Positions 41,508 to 42,717 of a DNA stretch of 64,000 nt are shown piece after piece; position 1 is the first letter of the stretch, and each line of letters starts with the position of its first letter. The stretch is from assembly GCA_041650835.1 (NCBI GenBank), contig JBAZKL010000004.1:294900-358899 (forward strand). Direction: 5' to 3'. The position numbers and the translations under genes are program-made. The stretch comes from Candidatus Omnitrophota bacterium (lineage in GTDB: Bacteria; Omnitrophota; Gorgyraeia; Gygaellales; Profunditerraquicolaceae). The notes below the pieces were generated by a model. It was not told the origin of the DNA, did no database searches, and worked only from the letters and a program-made list of their open reading frames with translations.

Positions 41508-42717
41508 AGTCACGCAGGAATTCTTTTTTGAAATCGGCAAAACAGTCGCGCGCGATCGCCTCTCTCACCCGGCGCATCGTCTCCAGATAAAAATAAACAT
41601 TATGTAAAGAAACCAGGCGTAATCCTAATATCTCCCCGGTATTAAACAAATGCCGCAGGTATGAACGGGTAAAGCCGGTACAGGTATAACAACCGCAGCG
41701 CTTATCAAGCGGGCCGAGGTCCTTAGCAAAAGCGCCGTTACGGACCGTAACTTTGCCGGCACTGGTAAAAGCGGTGCCGTTCCTGCCGTAACGGGTAGGC
41801 GCCACGCAATCAAACATATCGACGCCCCGCTCAACCGCTTCAATAATATCCGCAGGTAAACCGATCCCCATCGCGTAACGCGGCTTATCTTCAGGGAGCA
41901 GGCAAGACGTCATCGCTATAATATTATACATTAAGTTCTTAGGTTCGCCAACTGAAACTCCGCCGATAGCATAGCCGTCAAAACCGATATCAACCATCTG
42001 CGCTGCACTTTCCTTGCGCAGGTCCTCATAGGTTGCGCCTTGCACGATACCAAATAACAACTGGTTGTCGGCTGCGGCACAAAGCCGCGCACCGGCGCAA
42101 TTCCGATCTGCGCCGGGTGTGATCGGCTGCGGCACAAAGCCGCGCACCGGCGCAATTCCGATCTGCGCCGGGTGTTGCCGGTGGTCGCTCACCGCGGCCC
42201 TGGAACGGCGCGCCCAATCAGTCGTACGCTTCATCGCAGCTTCCGCATGGTCTTTCGCGCACGGATAATGCACGCATTCGTCAAGCGGCATCATAATATC
42301 CGAGCCCAGCCCTTGCTGGATGCCCACCACATCTTCAGGAGTCAAAAAATGTTTCGTTCCATCGATATGAGACTGGAATTCCACGCCCTCATCGTGCACT
42401 TTACGCAGCAGCGCTAAACTAAAGATCTGATACCCGCCGCTATCAGTCAGAATAGGCTTATTCCAGCCCATAAAACGATGCAAGCCTCCGGCATTCTTAA
42501 TAACATCCATTCCCGGGCGTAGAAATAAATGATACGCGTTTGATAACGCGATCTGCGCCTGGCAATCTGACAAATCCCGGGGAGAAAGCGTCTTAACGCT
42601 GGCCTGCGTCCCAACCACCATAAAACAAGGCGTATCAAGTGTCCCGTGGGAAGTAACTAACTTCCCTAAACGCGCGTTGCTGGTCTTATCGCGATGAAGG
42701 AGAGTAAATGCACCCAT
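41497..42717 (-). CDS. tgt: Queuine tRNA-ribosyltransferase, carrying an ~35-aa insertion encoded by a tandem DNA repeat
   Basis: 406 aa. TGT motifs are present ([19 protein letters not shown]). The zinc site is CGCYTC...H. A non-canonical segment [36 protein letters not shown] lies between the conserved WARRSR and LFGIVQG motifs. Confidence 0.88.
42069..42175. repeat. Two tandem copies of a 52-nt GC-rich unit (period 55 nt) with internal hairpins, inside the tgt coding sequence
   Basis: Copy 1 is at 42069-42120 and copy 2 at 42124-42175; the two are identical. Each unit contains the hairpins GCGGC-ACAAA-GCCGC and CCGGCGC-AATTCCGATCT-GCGCCGG. Confidence 0.9.

Follow-up and report, generated by a model that had tools for sequence, protein, structure and literature searches.

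Two copies of a dispersed 48-nt two-hairpin element in the tgt gene of a Candidatus Omnitrophota bacterium, probably inserted separately

The stretch analysed here, called the window throughout, comprises 64,000 nt of a Candidatus Omnitrophota bacterium (NCBI GenBank assembly GCA_041650835.1, contig JBAZKL010000004.1, positions 294,900 to 358,899 of the forward strand), and the subject is a short exact repeat inside its tgt gene, which encodes queuine/preQ1 tRNA-ribosyltransferase. The open reading frame (ORF) at 41497-42717 was identified as Tgt by matches to Tgt chains of the Protein Data Bank (PDB) at E ~1e-116 and by a 100% match to an annotated Tgt from a Candidatus Omnitrophota metagenome-assembled genome (MAG), and its closest orthologues share the gene order of the window, PilZ-tgt-trmD-rplS. 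All PDB alignments were split into query residues 12-180 and 216-403, which leaves ~35 residues without a counterpart. An earlier description made from the letters alone (the sequence-only reading) had explained these residues as a tandem duplication of a 52-nt hairpin-forming unit with a period of 55, reminiscent of the palindromic elements of Rickettsia, and had placed the insertion between the conserved WARRSR and LFGIVQG segments of Tgt, where the orthologue alignment confirms it as lying in a variable loop. The parts of this loop are listed below, next to the collinear tract of the closest orthologue (P0003), with scores in bits for two covariance models (R1 and R2) that are described further on.

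41497-42717, minus strand: tgt (queuine/preQ1 tRNA-ribosyltransferase), intact coding sequence of 406 aa, from the ORF list and PDB matches.
42175-42195, minus strand: native slots upstream of unit 1, GCGGTGA GCGACCA CCGGCAA, codons A-V-S-D-H-R-Q, collinear with GCGATCA CCGATCA CCGATCA of P0003.
42127-42174, minus strand: unit 1, the gene-proximal 5' copy, 48 nt, CACCCGGCGCAGATCGGAATTGCGCCGGTGCGCGGCTTTGTGCCGCAG; 79.4 bits (R1) and 76.5 bits (R2); hairpin 1 at 42145-42174, hairpin 2 at 42129-42143; translated as 16 aa.
42120-42126, minus strand: CCGATCA, the native heptamer that separates the units and contributes to codons P-I-T, matching the tract heptamer of P0003.
42072-42119, minus strand: unit 2, the identical 48 nt; 79.4 and 76.5 bits; hairpin 1 at 42090-42119, hairpin 2 at 42074-42088; translated in the other frame as (T) plus 15 aa.
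42065-42071, minus strand: downstream of unit 2, the native heptamer CCGACAA with codons D-N, which is collinear with P0003's final CCGATCA.

Along the coding strand, the sequence of the loop runs GCGGTGA GCGACCA CCGGCAA, then the 48-nt unit, CCGATCA, the identical 48 nt, and CCGACAA CCAG. Tandem Repeats Finder (TRF) reported an array at 42068-42175 (period 55, 2.0 copies, 100% matches, score 216) that is by far the strongest tandem array of the window. Base by base, the identity extends over 53 bases (42068-42120 and 42123-42175), one more than the 52 first noticed, with two bases between the copies and a different pair of bases after each of them (TC and CA). Repeat cores of 43 nt and 25 nt occurred at exactly two places each in the 64 kb, even with three mismatches allowed, and at none in 100 shuffles. 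The palindromes GCGGCACAAAGCCGC (42074-42088 and 42129-42143) and CCGGCGCAATTCCGATCTGCGCCGG (42092-42116 and 42147-42171) were recovered where the sequence-only reading had put them, and the open frame of 406 aa and the translation of the two copies in different frames, as peptides of 16 and 15 letters, were as it had described them. The RNA fold of the repeat region amounted to -67.1 kcal/mol (z = -4.1 against shuffles), and no terminator- or promoter-like site was found within 42068-42175. A CRISPR-like array was considered and rejected on account of the two copies, the spacer of 2-7 nt, and the position inside an ORF.

The origin of the period became apparent from P0003, a syntenic Tgt of 374 aa that is 92% identical outside gaps and whose loop is encoded by GCGATCA followed by four CCGATCA heptamers, with no hairpin. 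When both units are taken out of the window, five heptamer slots remain (GCGGTGA GCGACCA CCGGCAA CCGATCA CCGACAA), likewise the number in P0003, and the remaining loop of 16 aa has the same length as that of P0003 and a closely similar sequence (SDHRQPITDNQ and TDHRSPITDHQ). Compared with this empty site, no bases were added beyond 2 × 48 nt, and judged by this alignment both units are clean 48-nt additions at two successive heptamer junctions (A^CCGA), without target-site duplication (TSD). The period is 55 because a 48-nt unit is joined to a 7-nt native heptamer, and the two copies are read in different frames because seven native bases separate them. The insertion had been given as ~35 aa; it is indeed in frame, and the net foreign part is smaller, 2 × 16 = 32 aa, with P-I-T and D-N-Q being native residues that also occur in P0003. 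The 48-nt unit contains no stop in any of its six frames, as do ~16% of shuffles of the same composition, and is in this respect permissive and not remarkable.

The unit belongs to a family of dispersed repeats. In hairpin 1, a stem of 10-11 bp with a bulged C carries a conserved loop that contains GGA (AGATCGGAAT); hairpin 2 has a 5-bp stem with a YTTKY loop, and family units measure 46-49 nt. A 19-mer of hairpin 1 was found at 45 places in a genome collection made up of species representatives, among which the window's own genome is not included; 30 of these were chance coding matches in GC-rich bacteria, and the other 15 were copies in four Omnitrophota MAGs (seven in RA.bin37, six in CAZPNW01, the genome of P0003, and one each in LacPavin and STB_163). 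A 25-mer of the hairpin was found on five metagenome contigs, none of them from the window's genome. Using covariance models built from four unaltered copies (R1, alignment A4) and from 24 matches (R2, alignment A7), 24-27 copies were scored at 28-81 bits in the Omnitrophota loci that the word scans had found. In the 24-match alignment, which was fitted to the model, so that pairing counts lean towards the structure, 97.6% of cells were paired, compensatory changes were seen in 12 of 15 pairs, and the covariation score was 0.608, as compared with 0.138 for shuffled alignments and at most 0.09 when partners were slid. Every copy carried the GGA in the loop of hairpin 1, including seven that had not been ascertained via the 19-mer. 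The search for further copies that had been proposed beforehand, inside genes in particular, has therewith led to a dispersed family in other Omnitrophota genomes, one member of which lies in trmD of a sister genome.

Searches for relatives of the unit elsewhere were negative within their respective scopes. Rfam 15 held no family for the units of the window at E <= 10, the best match being a chance-level miRNA (21 bits against a gathering threshold of 100, E = 0.39), and returned nothing at E <= 1 for five loci with typical copies. No copy of the 19-mer was found in viral contigs, and a protein database queried for other in-frame insertions, using the unit translated in all six frames, gave no scorable match, such a search being too insensitive for peptides of 16 aa. 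An exhaustive R2 search of the 64-kb window with filters off returned only the two copies in tgt. Weak covariance-model matches at 33559-33605, 34340-34499, and 50973-51006 were rejected, as they lie inside ordinary coding sequence at E >= 0.04.

Within this Omnitrophota subclade, the element is normally intergenic and typically lies directly 5' of a Shine-Dalgarno sequence or a tRNA, and most of the copies found were intergenic. In eight loci (L006, L008, L021, L022, L027, L029, L045, and L054, from RA.bin37, LacPavin, and one metagenome contig) 0-2 nt lie between the end of the unit and AAGGAG(G) with its start codon, and in two more (L019 and L035) the unit ends directly before the 5' end of a tRNA gene, always in the same orientation. 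The fixed position before Shine-Dalgarno sequences and tRNAs together with the invariant GGA loop suggests a CsrA-type or other leader function for these copies. An orientation bias relative to GC skew was seen in 16 of 21 loci and is confounded by gene orientation. In CAZPNW01, units are flanked by runs of CCGAnnA heptamers (L024, L032, L039, and L053) with the same borders as in the window, A^CACCC...CAG^CCGA. Head-to-tail doublets occur in the window's tgt and in L021, L027, L045, L049, and L053, and in four loci (L021, L045, L053, and L043) a unit lies exactly within the hairpin-1 loop of a second unit, where it follows GATCG. The family shows a preference for heptamer junctions and hairpin loops. 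As a separate observation made by eye, an upstream ORF at L039 ~7349-7400 appears to enter the CCGAnnA tract and to end at the TAA of CCGATAA; in that case, C-terminal extensions can likewise arise from heptamer tracts.

Copies inside genes are found in either orientation. P0004, a Tgt 86% identical to that of the window, has one antisense unit in the same loop (L004 10548-10594, 35-54 bits), itself within another short inverted repeat (TGCCGC...GCGGCA), and this unit represents an independent insertion at the same Tgt site. In the genome of P0003, TrmD carries a unit as an in-frame insertion of 13 aa (L001 2672-2717, 30-48 bits, SAPAYRKAGRAALCR region) that is not present in the TrmD of the window. 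The loop of P0002 holds only CAGATCGGA inside a GTTATCG/CGATAAC hairpin, plus heptamers, and this segment may be a remnant of the unit. That four close relatives show four different states of one Tgt loop points to rapid turnover. In most relatives this loop is laden with repeats; an equivalent segment already present in sister taxa, named beforehand as an observation that would refute the insertion, was not seen in that sense, as the orthologues lack both units and the site is empty in the closest of them.

The position of the insert in the protein was then evaluated with an AlphaFold2 model of the window's Tgt (101-sequence alignment), which reached a mean predicted local distance difference test score (pLDDT) of 85.2. 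Residues ~182-214 are modelled as coil with block-mean pLDDT of 47-65, between a helix (155-181) and a strand (220-225), and the rest of the model superposes on the Zymomonas mobilis TGT with a target-normalised TM of 0.94 and a root-mean-square deviation of ~2 Å. A HMMER alignment places the insert between residues ~190 and 193 of the Z. mobilis enzyme, ten residues ahead of Gln203. It lies in an alpha-to-beta connection, followed by the strand with the catalytic Gln. In TIM barrels, alpha-to-beta connections lie on the face opposite the active site. The 32 extra residues are accordingly predicted to form a disordered surface loop on that face of the barrel, in line with the surface loop that had been expected. 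The columns of the catalytic Asp and Gln and of the Cys3His zinc site are invariant in the alignment of 101 sequences, the window included. As the inserted residues are predicted to be disordered, Tgt has most likely retained its function, with the insert carried along as a tolerated passenger. Two further readings were rejected: a pseudogene, with the ORF intact and the catalytic columns conserved, and an intein or native Tgt domain, with the insert absent from the closest orthologue, its DNA a dispersed repeat, and its peptide predicted to be disordered.

Taken together, the feature is quite likely to represent two separate, recent insertions of one 48-nt non-coding two-hairpin mini-element into tgt. 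A heptanucleotide tract (CCGAnnA)n would already have encoded the surface loop of Tgt when two copies of the unit, probably derived from a copy elsewhere in the genome, entered neighbouring A^CCGA junctions without TSD. Each insertion would have kept the Tgt frame because it adds 16 codons and contains no stop in any frame, and the seven native bases between the copies would have led to two different 16-aa peptides. The insertions are presumed recent because the two copies are 100% identical.

That identity, over 53 nt and head to tail, would also be produced by a simple tandem duplication, i.e. slippage or unequal crossing-over of one unit together with its flanking heptamer (55 nt), and heptamer tracts are prone to slippage, with the loop lengths of relatives varying by steps of 7 aa. 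A duplication of 55 nt, however, shifts the frame by +1 and would have broken it, and it would have added a sixth heptamer slot where five are observed, as in the empty orthologous loop. The middle CCGATCA, moreover, is ancestral and seen in P0003, not the hybrid of CCGGCAA and CCGACAA that crossing-over would give, and the bases after the copies differ, unlike those of a fresh duplication. The tandem duplication of the sequence-only reading is therefore improbable, with a 48-nt unit and a native heptamer between two insertions accounting for the spacing. A wrongly expanded repeat or a chimera of strain variants, which the same reading had offered as an alternative, would have to be considered for any MAG, as de Bruijn assembly is prone to errors at short, exact tandem repeats; the 406-aa ORF, however, is open only with two copies (or 5, 8, ...), the array, at 108 nt, fits within a typical read and within k=141, and the differing flanks of the copies imply that the junction of unit, CCGATCA, and unit must exist in reads. 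An identical 3,221-nt locus (window 40497-43717) is also present in a second assembly (ENA ERZ27247363, contig k141_858446, 89,977 nt, as compared with the 365,851-nt contig of the window), and relatives independently carry units in this loop, which makes an artefact highly improbable.

It may also be asked whether the element was selected in tgt, either as an RNA structure of its mRNA (a CsrA-type GGA hairpin, or a processing or stability signal for tgt-trmD-rplS) or as an adaptive peptide of Tgt. The covarying stems and the conserved GGA loop would fit this, as would the intergenic copies fixed directly before a Shine-Dalgarno sequence and start codon or a tRNA 5' end, and the hairpin-forming DNA that most Omnitrophota hold in the same Tgt loop. 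Close relatives, however, differ in what this loop holds (a pair of sense units, a single antisense unit, nothing but heptamers, or a remnant), the peptides encoded by the two copies are unrelated and predicted to be disordered, and neither a terminator- or promoter-like signal nor an Rfam family was found, so that such a selected function is quite improbable for the copies in tgt; a crude motif search gave no CsrA-like ORF in the window, which is uninformative for the whole genome. Several points weigh against two separate insertions or limit the reading. The outer heptamers differ from the middle one, which keeps the statement on TSD from being absolute; most family members were ascertained by an exact 19-mer, making the loop conservation partly a matter of construction; and only the two tgt copies were seen in the 64 kb of the genome covered, the source copy not being among them. 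The flanks are A^CCGA where units sit in heptamer tracts and GATCG^GAAT where they sit in hairpin loops, and they differ once more in trmD and P0004, with no single target motif. The second assembly with the identical locus may come from the same reads, and the neutrality of the insert for Tgt is a prediction of the model. No transposase or other mobility enzyme was identified in the 64 kb covered, RAYT not having been searched for genome-wide.

As to how the two insertions came about, insertion into hairpin loops is not explained by heptamer homology, and an enzyme acting in trans on single-stranded hairpins is therefore favoured. DNA-level insertion by a hairpin- or single-strand-specific HUH/Y1 enzyme, of the IS200/IS605 or RAYT-like kind, comes close to an even chance. 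Template switching or gene conversion between heptamer tracts is doubtful, and an RNA intermediate is unlikely.

The heptamers into which the units are set were found to be a wider feature of the phylum. The Tgt loop was measured between W(A/S)xR(S/A) and LFGI(V/Q)QG in 107 parsable Omnitrophota sequences: it ranges from 10 to 48 aa, is 10 aa long in 32 of them and longer in the other 75, and shows peaks at 17 aa (11 sequences) and 24 aa (13 sequences), i.e. in steps of 7 aa, which correspond to three heptamers. The longest loops, of 48 aa, are those of the window and P0028. In the DNA of nine long loops, lineage-specific and often inverted heptamer arrays fold into long hairpins, such as (GGTTCTC)4 followed by (CCGAACA)4 in P0020 or (CAnATCG)4 followed by (CGATAAG)4 in P0024, and the loops of P0028 and P0072 combine heptamers with other GC hairpins such as CCTGCCTGCCGGCAGGCAGG. 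Even the 10-aa loop of P0092 already contains one copy of each heptamer, GTTATCG-G-CGAACAC. The CCTGCCTGCCGGCAGGCAGG hairpin (CLPAGRQ-like peptides) belongs to a second family, which is present at this position of Tgt in eight or more other lineages of Omnitrophota, seen as DNA in P0072 (L058) and P0028 (L057) and as peptides in P0009, P0039, P0055, P0083, P0114, and P0119, and it is intergenic in L049.

Beyond the Tgt loop, TRF reported 47 rows (~44 distinct) of period-7 arrays in the 310 kb of Omnitrophota loci examined (L001-L062), with at most nine rows for any other period, as compared with one period-7 array in 217 kb of unrelated bacterial loci. Examples lie at L055 11517-11544, L056 6449-6475, L058 7263-7296, L003 4364-4393, and L062 2327-2384. 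Arrays of differing heptamers recur at orthologous places, namely in the tgt loop, one trmD loop, the SpoIID N-terminus, the tgt-trmD spacer, and the FTHFS-FTCD spacer. In the window, a further period-7 array, ATAGACT × 5.1 with 93% matches, lies at 52346-52381 in low-GC intergenic DNA 5' of the minus-strand ORF 51187-52347. Just 5' of tgt, the intergenic segment 42739-42875 forms an imperfect inverted repeat with 36-nt arms that are 81% complementary, made up of AT-rich repeats of ~7 nt (AAAGTAT AAAGGCT AAATATC AAAGGAA), with a GC hairpin, CCTGCTTG-TCAG-CAAGCAGG, at its centre (42794-42813) and a DNA fold of z = -6.5. This architecture of inverted heptamer arrays and a GC hairpin is the same as in the Tgt loops of relatives. 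I found no relevant literature on heptamer repeats in Omnitrophota or on such mini-elements there.

For annotation, it matters that the units and heptamer arrays inflate and diversify protein loops, as with the 10-48 aa in Tgt, and that they can be mistaken for assembly errors or frameshifts when MAGs are curated; they may also confuse orthology and structure prediction. The intergenic copies fixed before ribosome-binding sites suggest a layer of post-transcriptional control in Omnitrophota that has gone unrecognised.

In-frame invasion of housekeeping enzymes by palindromic repeats is, to my knowledge, a textbook matter only for Rickettsia. The same in-frame outcome is now seen in an uncultivated phylum about which little is known; the element is much smaller, and a filled site can be traced to its empty counterpart. 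Rickettsia palindromic elements (RPEs) are dispersed repeats found in frame in unrelated housekeeping genes, at positions compatible with the fold, where they add a peptide segment (PMC10969869). The Omnitrophota unit is likewise dispersed, palindromic, and multi-copy (15 genome and 5 metagenome copies by exact-word scans), and lies in frame in tgt (in the window, and antisense in P0004) and in trmD (L001), within a tolerant surface loop in the case of Tgt. RPEs, however, measure ~100-150 bp, form families in Rickettsia, and encode a conserved peptide in one frame, whereas the unit has 46-49 nt, is read in several frames and either orientation, is mostly intergenic, and is associated with heptamers. 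The resemblance drawn by the sequence-only reading thus holds for behaviour, in-frame and dispersed, while membership among the RPEs fails on size, clade, and peptide conservation.

Other short repeats share some of these traits. MITEs (miniature transposable elements with inverted repeats; Correia/NEMIS, ERIC, and BOX) are non-autonomous, small, and structured, are often co-transcribed with their neighbours, and are occasionally intragenic in frame (PMC10969869). The unit, too, is small, structured, and in frame within genes, but MITEs have terminal inverted repeats and TSDs and are usually >100 bp long, whereas the unit has neither: its ends, CACCCGGC... and ...GCCGCAG, are not mutually complementary, which leaves two separate hairpins and no terminal inverted repeats. 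For the mini-elements derived from IS200/IS605 (PATE), which are characterised by subterminal hairpins, absence of TSD, and a short conserved target beside the insertion on one strand, the comparison is mixed: the unit has hairpins and no TSD, its flanks show no single target motif, and the strand bias (16 of 21 loci) is confounded with gene orientation. Repetitive extragenic palindromic (REP) elements and REPINs are short GC-rich imperfect palindromes mobilised by RAYT, which are IS200/IS605-like Y1 transposases (PMC3116915). The unit resembles REPs in being a short, GC-rich, imperfect palindrome that is mainly extragenic and multi-copy, with compensatory changes and no TSD, and by this analogy a hairpin-recognising single-strand mechanism common to both is plausible. 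REPINs, however, consist of two REPs in inverted arrangement, have a conserved 5' tetranucleotide, and are linked to a RAYT gene, whereas the Omnitrophota doublets are direct, with two different hairpins per unit and copies inside genes.

Cyanobacteria possess small dispersed repeats (SDRs) and heptameric STRR repeats, reportedly the subject of Elhai et al. in 2008 and Mazel et al. in 1990. SDRs are very small dispersed hairpins with compensatory changes, embedded in tandem heptamers and nested in their own copies; they are not known to encode a protein or to make TSDs. Cyanobacterial heptamer arrays are very abundant genome-wide and also occupy tolerant sites of functional genes. The Omnitrophota unit is similarly embedded in tandem heptamers (in the window's tgt and in L024, L032, L039, and L053), nested in itself (L021, L045, L053, and L043), and marked by compensatory changes, the absence of TSD, and abundant period-7 arrays in the surrounding loci. 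SDR1-8, in turn, are 21-27 nt long with one hairpin and are confined to heterocystous cyanobacteria, in-frame insertion into protein loops not being a hallmark of theirs; the unit differs in having ~48 nt and two hairpins and in belonging to a distant phylum.

For the question of how very small repeats such as SDRs and REPs, and heptamer arrays with them, originate and move, a second, unrelated phylum with heptamer tracts, nested mini-hairpins, and no TSD offers a comparative handle on the enzyme responsible; if both phyla share it, comparative genomics could identify it. Somewhat short of an even chance, and hence tentatively, the Omnitrophota subclade may have an STRR/SDR-like system of its own, in which genome-wide heptamer arrays are accompanied by 46-49-nt elements inserting without TSD into heptamer junctions and hairpin loops, their own included, with the Tgt loop and one TrmD loop as a phylum-wide hotspot of in-frame remodelling. 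If this is true, the elements would be among the smallest mobile DNAs known, and the significance would be greater were such a phylum-wide system of heptamers and mini-hairpins confirmed. Of the repeat systems considered, the one that the unit appears to resemble most closely overall is that of the cyanobacterial SDR elements set in STRR heptamers.

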